64,000 nucleotides of DNA from Escherichia coli (GCF_044324875.1 NZ_CP172185.1); one strand, 5' to 3'. Numbered from the stretch's first letter, positions 19,118-42,565 are shown. Notes: generated by a model from the sequence alone, not told the origin. Program-made: numbers and translations.

Positions 19118-20260
19118 ATGACAAATAAACACCCATCATTGTTTTCTCCTTTTATGCTGACAGAAAAAATAAAGCTACGTAATCGTATCGTTATGGCCCC
19201 TATGACGACCTGGTCAGCGAATCCTGATGGAACCATCTCTGAGCAAGAACTCGAATTTTATAAACGCCGCTCACAAAATGTTGGTTTAGTAATAACAGGA
19301 TGTACCTATGTCACGCCAAGCGGCATTGGGTTTACTCATGAATTTGCCGCGTATGACGACCGTTTCATTAACAGCCTTGAAAAGTTAGCAGCGGCAGCCA
19401 AAAGTGGCGGTGCTCCGGCTATTTTGCAGATTTTCCACGCCGGTAATAAAGCCATCCCGGAGCTTGTACCAAATAACGATGTTATTAGTGCCAGCGCATC
19501 AAGCGTAAAATCTGGTGACTTTATGAAGAGAGTGGTACAAAGCAGGGAAATGACTGAAAACGAAATTCAGGAAACCATTAGAGCATTCGGAGATGTCACA
19601 AAAAGGGCGATTAAAGCAGGTTTTGATGGCATTGAACTTCATGGTGCGCACGGATTCCTTCTACAGAATTTCTTCTCCCCTCTATTTAACCAGCGTAATG
19701 ACCGATGGGGAGGAGATCTCGAAAGACGTATGCGATTCCCGCTGGCCGTATTACAGGAAGTAAAAAATGTAGTCTATGAATATGCGACAAAGCCCTTTGC
19801 CATCGGTTACAGAATATCTCCTGAAGAATCTGCAACAGGGGGGCTGCGGATAGAGGATACTTATAAACTCCTTGATCGGCTCATTGCATCCGGTATTTCG
19901 TATATACATACCTCGCTGGTCAGTATTAACGATAGCTACCCTGTTGAGTCGCCAAATGGCCCCCGAACTATTGAATTGATTTTAAATCATATTGCAGGCA
20001 GAGTGCCGGTAATCGCTGCAGGTAAAATACGCACACCGTCTCAGGCTCAAGAAGCAATTTCCACTGGCCTGCCACTTGTTGCGATCGGTAAAGGGCTGGT
20101 GATAAATCCAGAATGGGTGACTTTAGCTGAATCAGGTAGAAGCCATGAAATTCAAACAACCCTTAATCCACAACTTGTTCCTGAATTAACCATTCCGGAT
20201 AAACTATGGGATCAAATTCAGGCATCGAAAGGAACTGGCTGGTTTCCGTTAATGGATTAA
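19118..20260 (+). CDS. Old Yellow Enzyme-family NAD(P)H:flavin oxidoreductase (380 aa)
   Basis: TIM-barrel OYE motifs (RIVMAPMTT, GFDGIELHGAHGFLL, IAAGKI). Confidence 0.75.
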   Translation: MTNKHPSLFSPFMLTEKIKLRNRIVMAPMTTWSANPDGTISEQELEFYKRRSQNVGLVITGCTYVTPSGIGFTHEFAAYDDRFINSLEKLAAAAKSGGAPAILQIFHAGNKAIPELVPNNDVISASASSVKSGDFMKRVVQSREMTENEIQETIRAFGDVTKRAIKAGFDGIELHGAHGFLLQNFFSPLFNQRNDRWGGDLERRMRFPLAVLQEVKNVVYEYATKPFAIGYRISPEESATGGLRIEDTYKLLDRLIASGISYIHTSLVSINDSYPVESPNGPRTIELILNHIAGRVPVIAAGKIRTPSQAQEAISTGLPLVAIGKGLVINPEWVTLAESGRSHEIQTTLNPQLVPELTIPDKLWDQIQASKGTGWFPLMD

Positions 20261-20731
20261 ATATCTATTACTCTCCCGAGTGTAAAACTATCAAACCAAT
20301 GAGTAACCGATACAGCCTCGCAAATTCTTTCAGATAATTAACCCGTCACTGCGGCACGTTCTCTCATAAGGCGTGCCTGCTGTGTAATCCAGTATGGATC
20401 CAGCATAGTTGACGGCTTAATAGACTCAATTCCTTTCCCAGGTTACCAACAACGATATCTTGTATAACACCCCAGAAGATACGACATTATGATGAGATGA
20501 GGTATGCTCCTCAGCGCCAATCAACGCCAGGGCTGGGCCAGTTTTGAGATCAGACTCATTCCCGGACTGACTTCAGGCGACATATATCAATGACGTTGGG
20601 GCAATAAAAGATAGCCGATGTAATACATCTATTCAAATTTGTGATACATGTCAAAAAATTGGTTGACCAAACTCGTTATTTATATAAGGGCACTTACGAA
20701 GTGCACTCTTTTTTAAAGCGAGGAAGTACCA

Positions 20732-20833
20732 ATGAAAGAGAATAAAGTACAACAAATCAGTCATAAACTGATTAATATCGTTGTTTTTGTCGCAATTGTA
20801 GAATACGCCTATTTATTTCTCCATTTCTATTAA
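20732..20833 (+). CDS. ykgR: Small hydrophobic protein YkgR (33 aa)
   Basis: MKENKVQQISHKLINIVVFVAIVEYAYLFLHFY; GAGG 7 nt upstream of ATG. Confidence 0.6.
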   Translation: MKENKVQQISHKLINIVVFVAIVEYAYLFLHFY

Positions 20834-21162
20834 TAACGGCAATAAACTGTTCACTTCAGTGATATTAAAAAATATGCATCCTCTCCCTTTTTTGTAAGTA
20901 ATTATTATATCCGTGGGAGAGGAATACACGCTGTCCGGCAATCAATCAAACTGCGATAAATCATCGGCCAGTAAAATGGAGATAGCCTCCATTCTCGAAA
21001 AATTCATACTCTCAGCGAAACCATCACTCATCAAGGCGTTTATGGGAGCGTCGCCAATGGCTGCTAACAATGCCAGACTTCCCCGTTGCCGAAATTCCAC
21101 ATACCACAAATGGTCACAGGGATTGGGTGTTGAAATGATCCGGATGAGCATGTATCTTTATG

Positions 21163-21180
21163 GTTATGTTATAACATAAC
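21163..21180. promoter_or_regulatory. Zur box upstream of ykgM-ykgO
   Basis: Perfect palindrome gttatgttataacataac 9 bp before the rpmE2 start. Confidence 0.7.
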
Positions 21181-21188
21181 AGGTAAAA

Positions 21189-21455
21189 ATGATGAAGCCC
21201 AATATCCATCCTGAGTATCGTACTGTGGTGTTCCACGACACCAGTGTTGATGAGTACTTTAAAATCGGCTCGACTATCAAAACAGACCGTGAGATTGAGC
21301 TGGATGGCGTAACGTATCCGTACGTGACAATTGATGTCTCTTCTAAATCGCACCCGTTCTATACAGGGAAGCTGAGAACAGTGGCATCAGAAGGAAATGT
21401 TGCACGATTCACCCAACGTTTTGGTCGTTTTGTTAGCACGAAAAAGGGGGCATGA
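21189..21455 (+). CDS. ykgM: Zinc-independent ribosomal protein L31 paralog (type B)
   Basis: [19 protein letters not shown]...; lacks CxxC zinc ribbon. Confidence 0.85.
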
Positions 21456-21595
21456 TGAAAGTCCTTAACTCTCTGCGTACCGCAAAAGAACGCCATCCAG
21501 ACTGTCAGATTGTGAAGCGAAAAGGACGGCTATATGTGATTTGTAAATCTAATCCACGTTTTAAGGCCGTTCAGGGTCGTAAGAAAAAACGTTGA
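21455..21595 (+). CDS. ykgO: Zinc-independent ribosomal protein L36 paralog (46 aa)
   Basis: [46 protein letters not shown]; ATG overlaps ykgM stop (ATGA); below track size cut-off. Confidence 0.85.
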
Positions 21596-22172
21596 TTCAA
21601 AATTCGACGAATTAACGATATTTGTCTGATTAATAATCAGACCGGATTAATGTTGGTGTATTTATTACACCAGCATTAATTTTCCTGAGGATGTATCTTC
21701 CTGTTCATTTAAGGTCAACTGCCTGACGTTTCTCTCCGAATATTCCATTATATTAATGTTGACTTGTTGACCAGGTGCGCCCTGTATGCTGGCATCAACT
21801 CTCTTTTAGACTGAACACGCCACTCAGTTTCCTCCCTTTGCGACGCAGCCTGCATTTACACTCAAACGGTTAAGATGATAAATGTGGTAAATCTGTTGGT
21901 ACTGACATAAAAACGTTTACGCCACAGGAACGGCCTGATCCACCGGTAACCCCATCGCCGACGTTCGAGTGCCAGTTAGAGTAACGCGCACAGATGACTG
22001 AATGCAGTGCCCTGGCAAAGAGGCCATCGTTCCTGTGACAACTGGCAGTCTTCGTTTAACTTCACTTAATTTGGCTCTTAGGGGGCTTACCGGACAGATG
22101 ACGTACTTACACCTGTTTAATTTTTCATCACTTATTGGGATGAACACCCATAACCATGGTAATGACTCCAAC

Positions 22173-22676
22173 TTATTGATAGTGTTTTATGTTCAGATAA
22201 TGCCCGATGACTTTGTCATGCAGCTCCACCGATTTTGAGAACGACAGCGACTTCCGTCCCAGCCGTGCCAGGTGCTGCCTCAGATTCAGGTTATGCCGCT
22301 CAATTCGCTGCGTATATCGCTTGCTGATTACGTGCAGCTTTCCCTTCAGGCGGGATTCATACAGTGGCCAGCCATCCGTCATCCATATCACCACGTCAAA
22401 GGGTGACAGCAGGCTCATAAGACGCCCCAGCGTCGCCATAGTGCGTTCACCGAATACGTGCGCAACAACCGTCTTCCGGAGCCTGTCATACGCGTAAAAC
22501 AGCCAGCGCTGGCGCGATTTAGCCCCGACATAGCCCCACTGTTCGTCCATTTCCGCGCAGACGATGACGTCACTGCCCGGCTGTATGCGCGAGGTTACCG
22601 ACTGCGGCCTGAGTTTTTTAAGTGACGTAAAATCGTGTTGAGGCCAACGCCCATAATGCGGGCAGTTGCCCGGCAT
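22173..22676 (-). CDS. insB: IS1 transposase InsB frame (made as InsAB by -1 frameshift)
   Basis: 167-aa ORF overlapping insA 3' end. Confidence 0.85.
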
Positions 22677-22870
22677 CCAACGCCATTCATGGCCATATCA
22701 ATGATTTTCTGGTGCGTACCGGGTTGAGAAGCGGTGTAAGTGAACTGCAGTTGCCATGTTTTACGGCAGTGAGAGCAGAGATAGCGCTGATGTCCGGCGG
22801 TGCTTTTGCCGTTACGCACCACCCCGTCAGTAGCTGAACAGGAGGGACAGCTGATAGAAACAGAAGCCAC
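22595..22870 (-). CDS. insA: IS1 protein InsA
   Basis: 91-aa ORF with zinc-finger CPSC...CSHC and HTH. Confidence 0.9.
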
Positions 22871-37148: not shown

Positions 37149-38342
37149 CTAAAGCGCACCGGCCTTCTGGCGTGCGGTAACAAAGGTCAGTACGCCAGCG
37201 CAAAGGAGCAGCACGCTACTCATAGCAAACGTGCTCTGCCAGCCAAGGCGGTCAAACACAATGCCTCCTGCCGTTGATCCAAGGGCGATGGCGAGCCGAA
37301 TCACCGCGACCATGAGCCCGCCTCCGGCTTCGGCGTTGTCAGGCAACGTACGCGCAATCCATGTCCACCATCCGGTTGGCGCGGCGGTGGCCAGCATGCC
37401 CCAGAGTCCTAACAGCAGCGAGACCGTCCAGACGTGATGCCCGGTAAGCATCAGACCGATGGCAATGACGGCCATCAGTCCGGGTATGGCCATCAGCGTG
37501 GGGTAGAATTTTCTGTTGAGAAATGCCGAAACAACCAGCGTGCCAATAAAACCGGCCACGCCGATAATCAGCAAAATCGACGACAAGCCTAAGGAATTAA
37601 CCCGTGTCACCGACTCCAGAAACGGGCGCACATAGGTGAATAGCGCAAACTGCCCCATGAAAAACAGGCCACAAGCTATCATGCCGACCACAACCATGCG
37701 GCGGCTAAATAAGCGGAATACCGCGCCACATGAAGTGTGGCTTTTATTCGCATCCATGCTTGGCAGGCTGATGCACTGCCAGATAAAGGCGACAACCGCG
37801 ATGGGCACCAGGCACAAGAAAGCGCCTCGCCATCCGACCGTAGCCCCCAGATAGCTTCCCAGCGGTGCGGCCACGACCGTCGCCAGCGCATTACCGGCGT
37901 TGAAAATTGCCAGCGCACGCGTGACCTGATGCTGCGGCACCAGACGAATCGCCGTTGCCGCTGACATCGACCAGAATCCGCCAATAGCCACACCAATCAT
38001 CGCACGACCGACCATATACATCAGATAACTGGAAGCCAGCGCAATAATAAGCCCCGATACGGCCATCAGAACCGTCATCCCCAGCAGCAGGAACTTACGA
38101 TTCATCTTTCCAGCTAGCGTTGAAAGCGTCAGGCTGGTCAGAACCGCCAGCGCGCCGGAGATAGCAATCCCCTGCCCTGCCAGCCCCTCCGTCACGCCTA
38201 AATCGCGGGTAATCGGCGTGAGCAGGCTGACGGGCATGAATTCAGAAGCAATCAGCACAAACACGCACAGGGTCATGGCAAAAATACCGCCCCAGTATGC
38301 GCGCTGATGATGAGGTGATAGTGTTTGGCTTAGTGTCGACAT
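37149..38342 (-). CDS. MFS-family transporter (397 aa)
   Basis: About 12 hydrophobic segments. Confidence 0.75.
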   Translation of the reverse strand: MSTLSQTLSPHHQRAYWGGIFAMTLCVFVLIASEFMPVSLLTPITRDLGVTEGLAGQGIAISGALAVLTSLTLSTLAGKMNRKFLLLGMTVLMAVSGLIIALASSYLMYMVGRAMIGVAIGGFWSMSAATAIRLVPQHQVTRALAIFNAGNALATVVAAPLGSYLGATVGWRGAFLCLVPIAVVAFIWQCISLPSMDANKSHTSCGAVFRLFSRRMVVVGMIACGLFFMGQFALFTYVRPFLESVTRVNSLGLSSILLIIGVAGFIGTLVVSAFLNRKFYPTLMAIPGLMAVIAIGLMLTGHHVWTVSLLLGLWGMLATAAPTGWWTWIARTLPDNAEAGGGLMVAVIRLAIALGSTAGGIVFDRLGWQSTFAMSSVLLLCAGVLTFVTARQKAGAL

Positions 38343-38417
38343 AGTGAAATTTCACAAAGATCAGGATAAAAGCCACCAGCCTATGGCCGGTGGCTTTGCA
38401 TCAATTCAGGAGAGGTT

Positions 38418-39575
38418 TTATTTCAGTTTGGTCTGGAAAAATTGTTCGAACTTCGCGAAAGGTATTTTTCCGGCCACGTTATCGTACAGGTCCACGTGAT
38501 TTGCCCCTGGTACCACCACCAGCTCTTTGTCTTTACTGCCAACCGCCTTGTAAGCATCTTCAGCAAAATAGCGTGAATGCGCTTTCTCACCGGTCACAAT
38601 CAGCGTCGGGATGGTGATTTCACTGGCGTAGCTCAACAGCGGCATATTCATAAATGACAGCGGCATCGTTGCCGTCCACGCCCCGGTAGAGTTAACGGAA
38701 CGTTCGTGGAAGCCGCGCGGCATGCGATAGTAGTCAAAGAACTCTTTCAGTACCGGATGAGGATTTGCCGGCAGCGTTTCTGGCAGAATGCGCTCGCCCG
38801 CACTGACCTTGCCGTTGCTGTCGACATTAATATCATGACCACCGTGAGCGAACGTTCCGCTCTGCGCATCCTTCCAGCGCTGTTCATTCAGATATTGCAG
38901 AACAGCACGACGGTCGGCGGTAGAATAACGGTCTTTGCCATCCCCCACACCATGCCCCATCGCCCGGCTCATGTCATACATCACGCTGGTAGCTACCGCT
39001 TTAACGCGGGTATCCATCGCCACGTCGTTCAGCGCCATGCCGCCCCAGCCACAAATACCGAGCAGCCCGATACGGTTGCGATCTACCTCTTTTTGCAGCC
39101 CTAAGAAATCCACCGCCGCGCTGAAATCTTCAGTGTTGATATCCGGTGAGGCGACGTTTCGCGGATAGCCGCCGCTTTCCCCGGTGTAAGAAGGATCGAA
39201 CGCCAGGGTAACAAACCCTCGTTCCGCCAGCGTCTGCGCATACAGGCCGCTGGATTGCTCTTTCACCGCGCCAAATGGCCCACTGACCGCAATCGCCGCC
39301 AGCTTGCGATCGCCACGGTCTTTAGGCAGGTAAAGATCGCCCACTAAGGTGATGCCATATCGGTTCGGGAACGAGACTTTACGGTGATCGACTTTCTGGC
39401 TCTCGGCGAACGTTTTATCCCATTTATCTGTCATGGACACAGGGGCATTAGGATTGGTTGAATCAGCATAACTCATTGTCGTGACTCCACTTAATGATGC
39501 GAAAAGCAGCATGGTCGGCATCGCGGTTTTTAGCGTGCGGGTGAAGGCTTTCATAAAAATCCCCATAAAAAACAA
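38418..39575 (-). CDS. Secreted alpha/beta-hydrolase fold protein (385 aa; start uncertain)
   Basis: Signal peptide; GICGWGG nucleophile elbow; paralog of 18025..18945. Confidence 0.65.
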   Translation of the reverse strand: MFFMGIFMKAFTRTLKTAMPTMLLFASLSGVTTMSYADSTNPNAPVSMTDKWDKTFAESQKVDHRKVSFPNRYGITLVGDLYLPKDRGDRKLAAIAVSGPFGAVKEQSSGLYAQTLAERGFVTLAFDPSYTGESGGYPRNVASPDINTEDFSAAVDFLGLQKEVDRNRIGLLGICGWGGMALNDVAMDTRVKAVATSVMYDMSRAMGHGVGDGKDRYSTADRRAVLQYLNEQRWKDAQSGTFAHGGHDINVDSNGKVSAGERILPETLPANPHPVLKEFFDYYRMPRGFHERSVNSTGAWTATMPLSFMNMPLLSYASEITIPTLIVTGEKAHSRYFAEDAYKAVGSKDKELVVVPGANHVDLYDNVAGKIPFAKFEQFFQTKLK

Positions 39576-39740
39576 CAGAGAGATACAGGTTTCCGACGGA
39601 CAACGCTGCGGTGCTTTACTTTGATGGGGTCATTATAGTGAGCAGAATTAGTGCTGATTAGTGGGCGATTAATGCTAAGATTAATACCATATTGTTATAA
39701 ATTAATGCGGAGATTGCCGGCATGAAGGGGGGATGTTTCA

Positions 39741-40625
39741 ATGGCGAAAAGGGAGAACTACAACGAGCTGTACCTGTTTATGCAGGTGGTGCGGGAAGGC
39801 AGCTTTACCGCAGCGGCTCAGCGGCTGGGTCTTGCTCAGTCAGGAGTCAGCCGTTCTGTTCGCGAGCTTGAAGAAAGGCTGGGCGTCCAGCTGCTAGTGC
39901 GCACCACGCGTAAACTGTCGCTGACACAAGCAGGCGAGCAGCTCTACCAGAAGACGGCATCTGGATTTGAAATGTTAGATCTTGGGCTTGCCACGCTGGC
40001 GCACTATCGAGAGACGCCCTCCGGCACGGTGCGTATCAATGCCAGCCAGCACGCGATTGATAAATGCCTGCTGCCAAAGCTGGCGGTATTTAAACAGAGA
40101 TATCCTGATATCCGGCTTGAACTGATAAATGAGAGCCGGTTCGTCGATATCATCGAGGAAAGATTCGATGCAGGTGTCCGCCTGGGGCCTGAAGTCGGCC
40201 AGGGTATGGTCGCGGTACGCATCACGCCCGATATGGAGATGGCAATTGTGGGGACTCCGGAACATTTTCGTCGCTATGGTTTTCCGCAAACCCCGGCGGA
40301 TTTAAAGGCGCATCCCTGTATCGCCTATCAGTTTGCCGACGGCAGCGTATACCAGTGGGAACTCAATCAGGATGATAAAAAAATCACTCATCGCCCTGAA
40401 GGGCAATGGGCCCTATCCGACAGCTATATGGAAGCAGAAGCCGCCCGGCTGGGCCTCGGATTGGCCTATGTTCCTGTTGAACTGGTCGCGGATGATTTAG
40501 AACACGGTAAGCTTATCAGGGTGTTGCAGCGTTACAGCCTGCGAATGGAGGGATTGTTTCTCTATTACCCTCATCGCAACGTCTCCCCCGCCCTGCGGAT
40601 GGTCATTGATACATTGAAAATCTGA
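39741..40625 (+). CDS. LysR-family transcriptional regulator
   Basis: LysR HTH (FTAAAQRLGLAQSGVSRSVRELEERL); close paralog of the IS-split LysR gene. Confidence 0.8.
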   Translation: MAKRENYNELYLFMQVVREGSFTAAAQRLGLAQSGVSRSVRELEERLGVQLLVRTTRKLSLTQAGEQLYQKTASGFEMLDLGLATLAHYRETPSGTVRINASQHAIDKCLLPKLAVFKQRYPDIRLELINESRFVDIIEERFDAGVRLGPEVGQGMVAVRITPDMEMAIVGTPEHFRRYGFPQTPADLKAHPCIAYQFADGSVYQWELNQDDKKITHRPEGQWALSDSYMEAEAARLGLGLAYVPVELVADDLEHGKLIRVLQRYSLRMEGLFLYYPHRNVSPALRMVIDTLKI

Positions 40626-40839
40626 ACGTTAACAACGACCGACTCTTCACTGTGCAAAATTGTGTCAGGTAGTCCCTCTGCGTTCAATTCCAGGGTCTGC
40701 TTTGAGCGAGAAAGAGGGGACTATCCAGCAATGGAGATCACCCAAAAGAAAAAACCACCTGACTCCCTCGACAACCTTCATCCGGGCATTTAGCCTCAAT
40801 CAACATGTTTATATCTGTCAGGTTACTTCATGATGAAAA

Positions 40840-40989
40840 CTGATCATCATCGTTGTTTTTGTTGCAATAGTAGAATACGCGTATTTATTCCTCCATCTCT
40901 ATTAATAACGGCAATAAACTGTTCACTTCACTGATATTTAAAATATGTATCCTTTTCAAGCTGTTCAGCGGCGTAAGAAAAAGTATTAA
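40840..40989 (+). pseudogene. Decayed remnant of a ykgR-like gene fused to the 3' end of an rpmJ2-like gene
   Basis: 40840..40905 encodes LIIIVVFVAIVEYAYLFLHLY* with no start codon; 40945..40989 encodes MYPFQAVQRRKKKY* (compare RpmJ2 ...[11 protein letters not shown]); flanks align with 20768..20880 and 21558..21710. Confidence 0.5.
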
Positions 40990-41306
40990 TTATGAATTCG
41001 ACGATTTAACCATTTCAGTCTGATTGGTAATCATCTATGATTAATGCTGGTCTATTGATTACGCCAGCATTAACCGCTTAGGGATGTATTCTTCCTGTCC
41101 ATATAGCCCTCGAAAAAGAGAGAAAATAAAACTGTGTCCAATATTAATTTACCACTTCAGACCGAAACATCGGTGGAATTAGCAGGACGACTGGTACAGA
41201 AGGATGGTATAGCGTCATTTGTCGGGCATTCCATTGCCATAATAATGACAATTTTGAAGCAATAGCCGTGCTTCTTGATCATGTCTTAAAAATTATACCA
41301 TGAGCC

Positions 41307-41537
41307 TTATGAGGCATCATTTTTACTGACTGGTGTTAACTTTGCTATCATATAAACTCTGTTCTTAAAAAACGCGCCCAGAATTTTATATGATTTTCCT
41401 TGTTTTGCTGCCTGTAAAGAAATTTCTTTTTCAGTGCTGTCGATGGTTGAACCGACGGCAGTAATCGTTTTGGCGACGCTACTGAAGGATATTAAAGACA
41501 GTGTAACCACAACAATTAAAGAATAGATAATATTCAT
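41307..41537 (-). CDS. DUF1471 (YhcN/BhsA-like) small periplasmic protein
   Basis: Signal peptide then ...ITAVGSTIDSTEKEISLQAAKQGKSYKIL...; AGGAG ribosome-binding site. Confidence 0.55.
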   Translation of the reverse strand: MNIIYSLIVVVTLSLISFSSVAKTITAVGSTIDSTEKEISLQAAKQGKSYKILGAFFKNRVYMIAKLTPVSKNDAS

Positions 41538-41752
41538 GCTAATTCTCCTGACAATTGAGAGGATGAGTTTAATATACAAAGGCATTAAATATGAGTCATG
41601 TTTACTCCCTGTGAAAATAACCTTACTGTAATTAAACCTTCATCTCCTTCGGGGTGAGCAATGCAAAATATAATGCATCTTGCTATGCAAAACAGTGGAT
41701 ATAAATTTTCCTCGCGACCTATTTAATAAAACGTGAATATAAAAGTTAGTCT

Positions 41753-42304
41753 TCAGTTTGCAGATGCAGTAGGTCTGATGGTAATTTCGGTTGTATCAAC
41801 GCTTTCGGGAGATTCAATAATATGCCTTACAGCACGGGCAATATCCGCAGGTTGAAGTGCAACAGAACGGTAGGCGTCCATTGACTTCATGGTTTCCACA
41901 TGGGTAATGGTTGAAGCCAGTTCACTTTCTACAACCCCAGGATTTACGCAGGTCACACGGATTTTCGAGCTTTCCTGCCGTAAGCCATCCGAAATAGCCC
42001 GTACTGCAAATTTTGATGCGCAATAGACTGCGCCTGTGGGCACAACAGAAAGGGCACCAATAGAACCAAGATTGATTATCTGACCGGAACCCTGTGCTTC
42101 CATCACCGGAAGTACAGCGCCAATTCCCCAAAGTACACCTTTGATATTCACGTCAATAGTGAGCTCCCATTCATCTTGTTTTCCTGCTGCAAGCGGTGAA
42201 AGCGGCATAACGCCCGCATTATTGATAAGAACATCAACTCGCCCCCAGCTATCCAGCGCTACTTGCACGAAATCTGCCATGGACTGTCGGTCTGTGACAT
42301 CCAA
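41753..42304 (-). pseudogene. 5'-truncated short-chain dehydrogenase/reductase gene
   Basis: Has NNAG and YxxxK (YCASKFA) motifs but no N-terminal TGxxxGxG Rossmann segment; 5' end abuts the integrase remnant. Confidence 0.55.
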
Positions 42305-42475
42305 CTTGCATTTTCAGAAATGGGAGGCTGGGAGTCTATCGAAATGGTTCGTCGATATGCTCACCTTGCACCTAATCACCTTACCGAACACGCACGGCAA
42401 ATAGACTCAGTCCTGAACCCATCGGTCCCAAATTTGTCCCAGTCAAAAAAAAAGGAAGGTACTAATTATGTGTAA
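42263..42475 (+). pseudogene. C-terminal remnant of a tyrosine integrase gene beside thrW
   Basis: ...[21 protein letters not shown]... (catalytic Tyr region); ends 15 bp from the tRNA 3' end. Confidence 0.65.
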
Positions 42476-42489
42476 CTTATTGATTTAAA

Positions 42490-42565
42490 TGGTGCCGATA
42501 ATAGGAGTCGAACCTACGACCTTCGCATTACGAATGCGCTGCTCTACCAACTGAGCTATATCGGC
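42490..42565 (-). tRNA. thrW: tRNA-Thr (anticodon CGU)
   Basis: 76-nt cloverleaf GCCGATATAGCTCAGTTGGTAGAGCAGCGCATTCGTAATGCGAAGGTCGTAGGTTCGACTCCTATTATCGGCACCA. Confidence 0.9.

Follow-up and report, generated by a model that had tools for sequence, protein, structure and literature searches.

In Escherichia coli, ykgM and ykgO encode L31B and L36B, the Zur-repressed, zinc-independent paralogues of two ribosomal proteins, and YkgR is a small membrane protein. In the stretch of E. coli DNA analysed here (64,000 nucleotides of NZ_CP172185.1; hereafter the window) the three genes form an intact locus, and some 20 kb downstream, close to thrW, a short sequence resembles parts of the same locus. What is this second sequence, and how did it come to lie there? 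The original prediction read it as an old duplicate of the cassette, lying within the thrW-adjacent island, whose middle had been deleted, which would imply duplication first and decay in place afterwards. We identified it as the pseudogene remnant of a second ykgR-ykgM-ykgO locus, and our comparisons suggest that it is probably part of one of two old alleles that were stacked one behind the other, in-place decay of an E. coli duplicate being the less likely history.

Results

The stretch near thrW is a relic of a second ykgR-ykgM-ykgO locus

The resident locus occupies 20732–21708 on the plus strand, with ykgR at 20732–20833, a Zur box at 21163–21180, ykgM at 21189–21455, ykgO at 21452–21595 and a hairpin at 21647–21679. 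The Zur box (GTTATGTTATAACATAAC) has a single match in the window when up to three mismatches are allowed, and the resident sequence 20883–21558 is 100% identical to that of E. coli CFSAN061763, where it is annotated as ykgM/ykgO. From left to right, the gene order of the window is LysR, ykgR, ykgM, ykgO, ykgL', IS1, ecpRABCDE, ykgJ, yagU, paoABCD, an MFS transporter gene and a hydrolase gene (both on the minus strand), LysR1 (39741–40625), the relic, hyp92 and a truncated SDR oxidoreductase gene (both on the minus strand), an integrase fragment, thrW, proA, proB and phoE. The neighbours on the right, namely hyp92 (41307–41585), the truncated SDR gene (41753–42304), the C-terminal integrase fragment (~42317–42475, plus strand) and thrW (42490–42565, minus strand), travel with the relic. 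The closest complete genome for the relic region is that of strain 2012C-4221, which is 98.5% identical and collinear.

A blastn comparison of window positions 40601–41400 with 20001–22500 returned two blocks, both collinear with the resident locus and on the same strand, so that the repeats lie in direct orientation ~20 kb apart. The first (40837–40953 against 20765–20882; 106 of 118 positions identical, 90%, one gap, E 8e-40) holds ykgR codons 12–33, the stop codon and ~48 bases of 3' flank, and the second (40953–41102 against 21559–21708; 114 of 151 identical, 75%, E 2e-16) holds the end of ykgO (rpmJ2; ~11 codons and the stop) and the hairpin region downstream. Between them, 676 bp equivalent to resident 20883–21558 are absent, and with them the Zur box, all of ykgM and the first ~35 codons of ykgO. 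This pairwise alignment places the relic within 3 bases of where it had been predicted and upholds the reading of a decayed second ykgR and ykgM-ykgO copy from which the body of the cassette was removed; the predicted identity of ~85% turns out to be an average of the measured 90% and 75%. Although the region is AT-rich, the idea that the resemblance is due to chance, low complexity or a shared mobile-element end can be set aside with near certainty. Two collinear, same-strand matches with such E values refute it, the matched DNA consists of ykgR and ykgO coding sequence with flanks and not of IS or phage ends, and the relic is orthologous to annotated YkgR genes of other species (see below).

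Within the relic, all parts lie on the plus strand and keep the order and orientation of their resident counterparts. The ykgR piece (40837–40905) has no start codon; an in-frame TGA (40834–40836) stands just upstream and is followed by KLIIIVVFVAIVEYAYLFLHLY and a stop, with 20 of 22 residues identical to resident YkgR (90% at the DNA level). Its 3' flank (40906–40952) is homologous to 20834–20882. The ykgO tail (40953–40989) retains the final ~11 codons and the stop, and an ATG at 40937 opens a frame encoding MYPFQAVQRRKKKY that ends with this stop at 40989; both residual peptides had been predicted correctly. The lost cassette's 3' untranslated region (40990–41105) contains the second hairpin, with stems at 41041–41050 and 41064–41073, and homology to the resident locus stops at ~41102–41108. 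In contrast to the resident locus, the relic lacks the start codon, ykgR codons 1–11, the Zur box, ykgM and ykgO codons 1–35, and its tail and hairpin are just 75% identical to their resident counterparts, with the T tail of the hairpin gone.

These features decide which families the stretch can be assigned to. It shares homology with the C-terminal transmembrane half of YkgR (Pfam PF28062) and has neither the complete ~33-codon ORF with a start nor the N-terminal polar segment. It does not hold the complete ~46-codon ORF of a type B L36 (ykgO/rpmJ2, PF00444), nor any coding sequence of a type B L31 (ykgM/rpmE2, PF01197), all of which fell in the deleted interval, and with no upstream Zur box it is not a member of the Zur regulon. 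In 2012C-4221, O157:H7 and NCTC10444, NCBI PGAP labels the ykgR piece "small membrane protein YkgR; incomplete; missing N-terminus", which agrees with our reading in both stretch and verdict and is silent on origin; in these RefSeq relatives the ykgO tail, the hairpin and the LysR3 fragment described below are left unannotated. A full-text literature search found no paper describing the relic.

The relic begins at a joint with a mobile-element cargo gene

Immediately left of the ykgR piece lies a fragment of a third LysR-family gene, LysR3 (40692–40836, plus strand), comprising the upstream region, the ribosome-binding region and the first codons from an ATG at 40833–40835. Plasmids of Pantoea and Klebsiella michiganensis carry a LysR gene whose first 16 coding bases, together with the DNA preceding them, are 77–78% identical to positions ~40692–40836, and the parent gene belongs to a two-gene LysR-SRPBCC module. 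At the joint, which we call J1, the LysR ATG and three more codons run directly into ykgR codon 12, with a crossover microhomology, AAA(A/C)TGAT, that is present in both parents. Eighteen bases upstream of the LysR gene that are still present in O157:H7 have been lost in the window lineage. In E. coli, intact LysR-SRPBCC modules occur in lambdoid prophages beside hokD, and a fragment occurs in the ssrA/EspC island of strain E2348/69. J1 thus joins a chromosomal gene to the cargo of a mobile element. The LysR3 fragment is unannotated in the RefSeq relatives that we looked at, and J1 had been overlooked in the original prediction. LysR2, the relative of K-12 yagP encoded near thrW in other genomes, was considered as the fragment's parent and rejected, as the two share 28% identity over the DNA-binding domain alone.

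J1 also creates a chimeric 34-codon ORF (40830–40934, plus strand), which starts in LysR3 and continues out of frame through ykgR. This ORF of 33–34 codons is open in four E. coli alleles, and replacements are frequent both in it and in the ykgR frame. Nothing seen here marks it as a gene, and we treat it as an accident.

The gene on the far side of the LysR3 fragment, LysR1, matches a cluster of E. coli proteins at 100% identity, and it belongs to a portable three-gene module of MFS transporter, alpha/beta hydrolase and LysR1 (37149–40625). This module recurs at 74–78% DNA identity in Kluyvera, Klebsiella and Citrobacter amid wholly different neighbours. Homology of these relatives stops exactly at the LysR1 stop codon. 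Synteny through LysR1 was also followed and abandoned; its homologues in these three genera (83–90% identical) have unrelated neighbours and no adjacent ribosomal genes.

The internal deletion is shared with single-copy loci of other Escherichia

We found hyp92 to be confined to Escherichia, and tracing it led to the key single-copy loci. Its product is weakly BhsA/DUF1471-like, and the possibility that it is a YkgL paralogue, which would make the duplicated unit longer, was rejected on this resemblance and its restriction to Escherichia. In E. fergusonii (GCA_048109445.1) and in a cryptic Escherichia clade that we call clade X, the locus carries a sole copy whose ykgR is complete (33 aa, recorded as Pfam YkgR), arranged as upstream region, ykgR, internal joint, tail, hairpin, hyp92, SDR, LysR2, thrW and proAB. 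Clade X comprises three loci (L020–L022) and strain E69 (L015), is KTE114-like, and appears in records labelled E. coli or Escherichia sp.; the E69 record begins inside the relic, and species labels for clade X and for clade Y (below) are those of the records. The relic side of the window is 93.6% identical to E. fergusonii and 85.9% identical to clade X, and E. coli has the same internal joint, tail, hairpin, hyp92, SDR, LysR2 and thrW. The difference lies on the left: in these single-copy loci ykgR is full length, has its own upstream region and is the only copy, whereas the E. coli piece is cut at codon 12 by J1.

The internal joint, J2 (40950–40960), connects the ykgR 3' flank to ykgO codon ~36 in place of the 676 bp, at a microhomology, TTTT.AAG, that occurs both after ykgR and inside ykgO. 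It is common to the window, 2012C-4221, O157:H7, NCTC10444, E. fergusonii and clade X (L020–L022 and E69), and this identity across E. coli alleles, E. fergusonii and clade X points to one old event. Judged from these alignments, the deletion of ykgM-ykgO at J2 appears to be older than E. coli. A 9-base indel (CTTTTCCTG-like) lies at J2 (window 40950–40957); NCTC10444 and clade X keep the bases, which are missing in the window, O157:H7 and E. fergusonii. We had considered this 9-bp deletion as a derived marker uniting E. fergusonii with E. coli and dropped it, since NCTC10444 retains the bases and short direct repeats flank them; it is probably a recurrent slippage between CTTTTC repeats.

A second arrangement is found in clade Y (L012, L032, L033), where ykgR, ykgM, ykgO and ecpRABCDE (the operon of the E. 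coli common pilus) are followed by ~430 bp and then thrW, and where pao, hyp92 and the relic are all absent. The Escherichia ykgR-thrW interval may therefore be described by two old alternative versions: version I, with ykgR, the Zur box, ykgM, ykgO, the hairpin, ecpRABCDE and thrW, and version II, with ykgR, its 3' flank joined at J2 to the end of ykgO, the second hairpin, hyp92, SDR, LysR2 and thrW. In E. coli, the content of both is present in tandem, separated by the LysR3 fragment and by ~10 kb of additional modules from ykgJ to LysR1.

Several other variants of this interval were seen. In Escherichia sp. E1V33 (L013, 9820–10370), an integrase fragment and a partial thrW repeat directly adjoin ykgR and its 3' flank; the whole interval up to thrW, ykgM and ykgO included, is gone at this locus, and a further integrase-bearing element follows. 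The IS1 of the window (22173–22870), which lies between the ykgL remnant and ecpR and has InsB-like (167-aa) and InsA-like (91-aa) ORFs on the minus strand, is missing, judging by the annotation there, from the clade Y loci and from 2012C-4221. In the latter genome, genes resembling those of filamentous phages are found a few kb upstream of the resident ykgR (L034, 289–3099); they encode a GspD-like secretin and a protein with a zonular occludens toxin domain.

Outside Escherichia, ykgR and the hairpin were not recovered. The similarity of Salmonella, Klebsiella and Enterobacter records in the plasmid collection is limited to ykgM-ykgO coding DNA, at 72–73%, and a pattern back-translated from the YkgR C-terminus was found in Escherichia only, plus two tiny contigs that are 97–98% identical to the resident locus of the window and are probably E. 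coli contamination. A DNA pattern of the ykgR 3' flank had no match in the genome collection; K-12 differs from it at one base (GGA versus GGC). In Klebsiella, Salmonella and one more enterobacterium (L018, L019 and L030, respectively), ykgM-ykgO lies without ykgR between ylaB(pdeB)/lacI-like and ylaC-maa-hha-tomB-acrAB, so that the Escherichia cassette occupies a different chromosomal site and has gained ykgR upstream.

The relic lies outside the thrW island

Unlike the original prediction, which placed the relic within the thrW-adjacent island, our comparisons place it outside. In O157:H7, a P4-like element is bounded by an att-like repeat of the 3' end of thrW, and this repeat is found on the thrW side of LysR2, beyond SDR and LysR2 and ~2.5 kb nearer thrW than the relic, and the relic is thus outside the element. 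In E. fergusonii and clade X, the hyp92-SDR-LysR2 flank abuts thrW with no island at all, and in K-12, attR (ptwF) is on the thrW side of yagP. The relic therefore does not occupy the position, between thrW and the distal att repeat, of a member of a CP4-6-like thrW island or prophage.

The right-hand side of the window has itself been eroded. Its SDR gene (41753–42475 region) has no N-terminus and abuts the C-terminal integrase fragment beside thrW, and O157:H7, E. fergusonii and clade X carry a full SDR gene with a divergent LysR2; this comparison indicates that a deletion took the SDR 5' end, LysR2 and most of an integrated element. K-12 yagP, which has no blastn match to LysR1, may be a remnant of the LysR2 gene.

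The two halves of the relic differ in divergence

We then compared the two halves of the relic separately among the loci. In the 118-bp ykgR segment, E. fergusonii is 94.9% identical to the E. coli resident copy and 90.6–92.3% identical to the E. coli relics, and the relics are 89–91% identical to the resident copy. In the 150-bp tail and hairpin, E. fergusonii is 79.9% identical to the resident copy and 91–94% identical to the relics, and relics and resident are 72–77% identical; here the sequences of the relics, E. fergusonii and clade X cluster together at 85–97% mutual identity. The difference between halves is significant both for E. fergusonii (Fisher p 0.0005) and for the E. coli relics (p 0.001–0.004). 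For scale, proAB-phoE is 95.5% identical to the window in E. fergusonii, 92.7–94.2% in clade X and 94.4% in clade Y. The ykgR part would thus be at about the distance between species, and the tails would represent two much older lineages. Such discordance is what would be expected if versions I and II were alternative alleles, as their common left flank (the upstream region and ykgR) would recombine freely and their non-homologous interiors would not.

Individual sites in the ykgR segment were also inspected. At two of them, derived bases (CTGAT-C and AT-A) are common to E. fergusonii and the relics of E. coli, and the resident copy has the bases of all other Escherichia; at one (CTA to CTG), the resident copy groups with the relic against E. 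fergusonii. Such markers are few, and they lend the two-allele history weak but consistent support.

These observations bear directly on the explanation closest to the original prediction, a tandem duplication in place in an E. coli ancestor. Under it, DNA from ykgR codon 12 to ~20 kb downstream was duplicated with J1 as the joint, the second copy lost ykgM-ykgO and everything after the hairpin, and a later recombination of one ykgR segment with the other removed 20 kb and so produced the single copies of E. fergusonii and clade X. Several features agree with this: the copies are direct repeats ~20 kb apart, a gene truncated at its 5' end at a novel joint resembles a tandem-duplication joint, RecA-dependent recombination of the 118-bp direct repeats would yield the exact E. 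fergusonii structure, and the CTG site common to resident and relic and not to E. fergusonii is in its favour. However, halves that diverge by ~10% and 24% (p ~0.003) argue against one simple in-place duplication, and would need added gene conversion confined to the ykgR segment; conversion of this kind could mimic the difference in depth. The left side of J1 is a fragment of a mobile cargo gene that is not native to the 20-kb block. As E. fergusonii has relic-type bases from the 9th base of the repeat onwards, the crossover would have to fall within its first 8 bases, and the deletion would be needed twice independently, in E. fergusonii and in clade X. Finally, version I of clade Y ends at thrW with no trace of a second copy. 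Duplication in an E. coli ancestor followed by decay in place is hence rather unlikely in our estimate. With J2 present as a single copy in E. fergusonii and clade X, the arrangement of clade Y and the unequal halves, the predicted order of duplication first and decay afterwards is probably wrong.

Two old versions were probably stacked in the E. coli lineage

In the stacking history that we consider probable, version II would have originated by a long-ago illegitimate deletion at the TTTT.AAG microhomology of a cassette-bearing locus, which removed ykgM-ykgO. Later, in the E. coli lineage, version I and version II DNA would have been joined at J1 with the involvement of a mobile element, and either block may have been the incoming one. 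The E. coli interval would accordingly consist of version I, extended by ykgJ, yagU, paoABCD and MFS-hydrolase-LysR1, and then of version II from ykgR codon 12. J1 itself would be an illegitimate recombination, at 8–10 bases of microhomology, between ykgR and the first codons of the LysR gene. As the J1 partner is cargo of prophages, islands and plasmids, it is likely that two Escherichia lineages were joined, or that a mobile element with captured thrW-flanking DNA took part. After stacking, the relic would have drifted, and most E. coli, including K-12, may have lost it by deletions linked to the thrW island.

Homology-facilitated illegitimate recombination and specialised-transduction-type capture of the flanks of tRNA attachment sites are established general mechanisms, and either the former or a capture resembling the latter is a candidate here. 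The added block has one end in shared homologous DNA. At its other end, 1.6 kb from a tRNA integration site, a chromosomal gene is joined through microhomology to a cargo gene of prophages and islands. In difference from the established cases, no element ends, att repeat or donor were recovered, and we infer the order of events and the mechanism of stacking from the scar only. We found no donor in which LysR1 is followed by an intact LysR3, no thrW att repeat after ecpE, and no undeleted progenitor of version II with an intact ykgO and a relic-type tail.

The direction of the exchange is a more tentative matter. The E. coli lineage may first have had the version deleted for ykgM-ykgO, which E. 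fergusonii and clade X have to this day, and later have regained the L31/L36 genes, together with ecp, from another Escherichia lineage by the illegitimate joint within ykgR beside a prophage cargo gene; we regard this as possible and nothing firmer.

The relic persists in a minority of E. coli and looks non-functional

The relic occurs with the same internal junction in 2012C-4221, O157:H7 and NCTC10444, and in ~860 of 5,426 complete E. coli genomes (~16%, the number of carriers being deduced from match places minus records), leaving ~84% without it; at least 80% of window 40700–41310 is covered in 432 genomes. In K-12 the relic is absent; a deletion there begins shortly after paoD and ends at yagP, with the CP4-6 prophage beyond. 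In some other E. coli, the relic breaks off near 41070, ~370 bases into the query, and the place of hyp92 is taken by a gene of the AbiEii/AbiGii toxin family, another replacement at this hotspot.

None of the 5,426 complete genomes has an intact second cassette, and no second ykgM-like place was found beside the relic in the E. coli genomes searched. An intact second cassette near thrW, for which the original prediction had suggested a search, was likewise not found in E. coli or in the other Escherichia loci that we fetched. Candidates on plasmids or elsewhere in E. coli proved to be just misassigned chromosomes, a lone ykgM xenologue, and a copy at ylaB-ylaC with 80% identity. The lone ykgM-like gene, seen in E. 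coli drafts (L027–L029; L027 8001–8279), encodes 92 aa that are 92% identical to YkgM, is without ykgO, and sits in a conjugative element with TraC, TraU, TraG_N and integrase genes. An E. coli plasmid (NZ_OQ420472.1) carries ykgM at 81% DNA identity. Zinc-independent L31 genes apparently travel on mobile elements.

Could the relic have been co-opted for a new role? The LysR3 promoter might drive a chimeric protein of 33–34 aa (MKTD..RCFCCN..) or an sRNA ending at the hairpin, or the hairpin might insulate or terminate transcription between LysR1 and hyp92, which converge. In favour of such a role, promoter-proximal LysR3 DNA is kept, four alleles with differences of up to ~8% all have the ORF open, and the hairpin stems are far better conserved than their surroundings, with 3 of 20 stem columns varying against 81 of 138 in the rest of the segment (p 0.0002) and one stem pair switching between C-G, U-G and U-A among the copies. 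This conservation is readily explained in large part by the role of the hairpin at other loci, where it lies behind ykgO (resident) and behind ykgR (E. fergusonii, clade X). The relic hairpin folds at −22.5 kcal/mol (z −3.05), against −29.9 (z −6.5) for the resident one, and its T run is absent, so that it is no intrinsic terminator (a GC-containing hairpin with a T run); a scan of 40500–41700 returned no terminator-like site. A Pfam scan of the chimeric ORF and an Rfam scan of the relic gave no match, no sigma-70-like site was found on the plus strand upstream of the ORF, replacements in both frames are frequent among alleles, and most E. coli genomes do without the stretch. We hence regard co-option in any of these forms as highly improbable. 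By these sequence measures the relic looks non-functional, the conserved hairpin stem being the sole sign otherwise.

Discussion

In itself, the relic matters little, being a dead gene fragment that automatic annotation has already flagged in part. For annotation, the ykgO tail and the LysR fragment deserve to be marked as pseudogene pieces alongside the ykgR one. It is of greater interest as a dated scar in a much-studied region, which takes in thrW, CP4-6, pao, ecp and ykgMO, and as a sign that the arrangement of E. coli here is a composite one.

For the genus, the comparisons indicate that some Escherichia lineages have lost the zinc-independent L31/L36 cassette at this locus, and that the Escherichia site of the cassette differs from the one in Salmonella and Klebsiella (ylaB/lacI-like to ylaC). 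If the re-acquisition reading were true, this locus in E. fergusonii and clade X would amount to a natural knock-out of the Zur-controlled ribosome switch. E. fergusonii and the E69-like clade may thus offer natural strains in which to study the fitness cost of ykgM-ykgO loss under zinc limitation.
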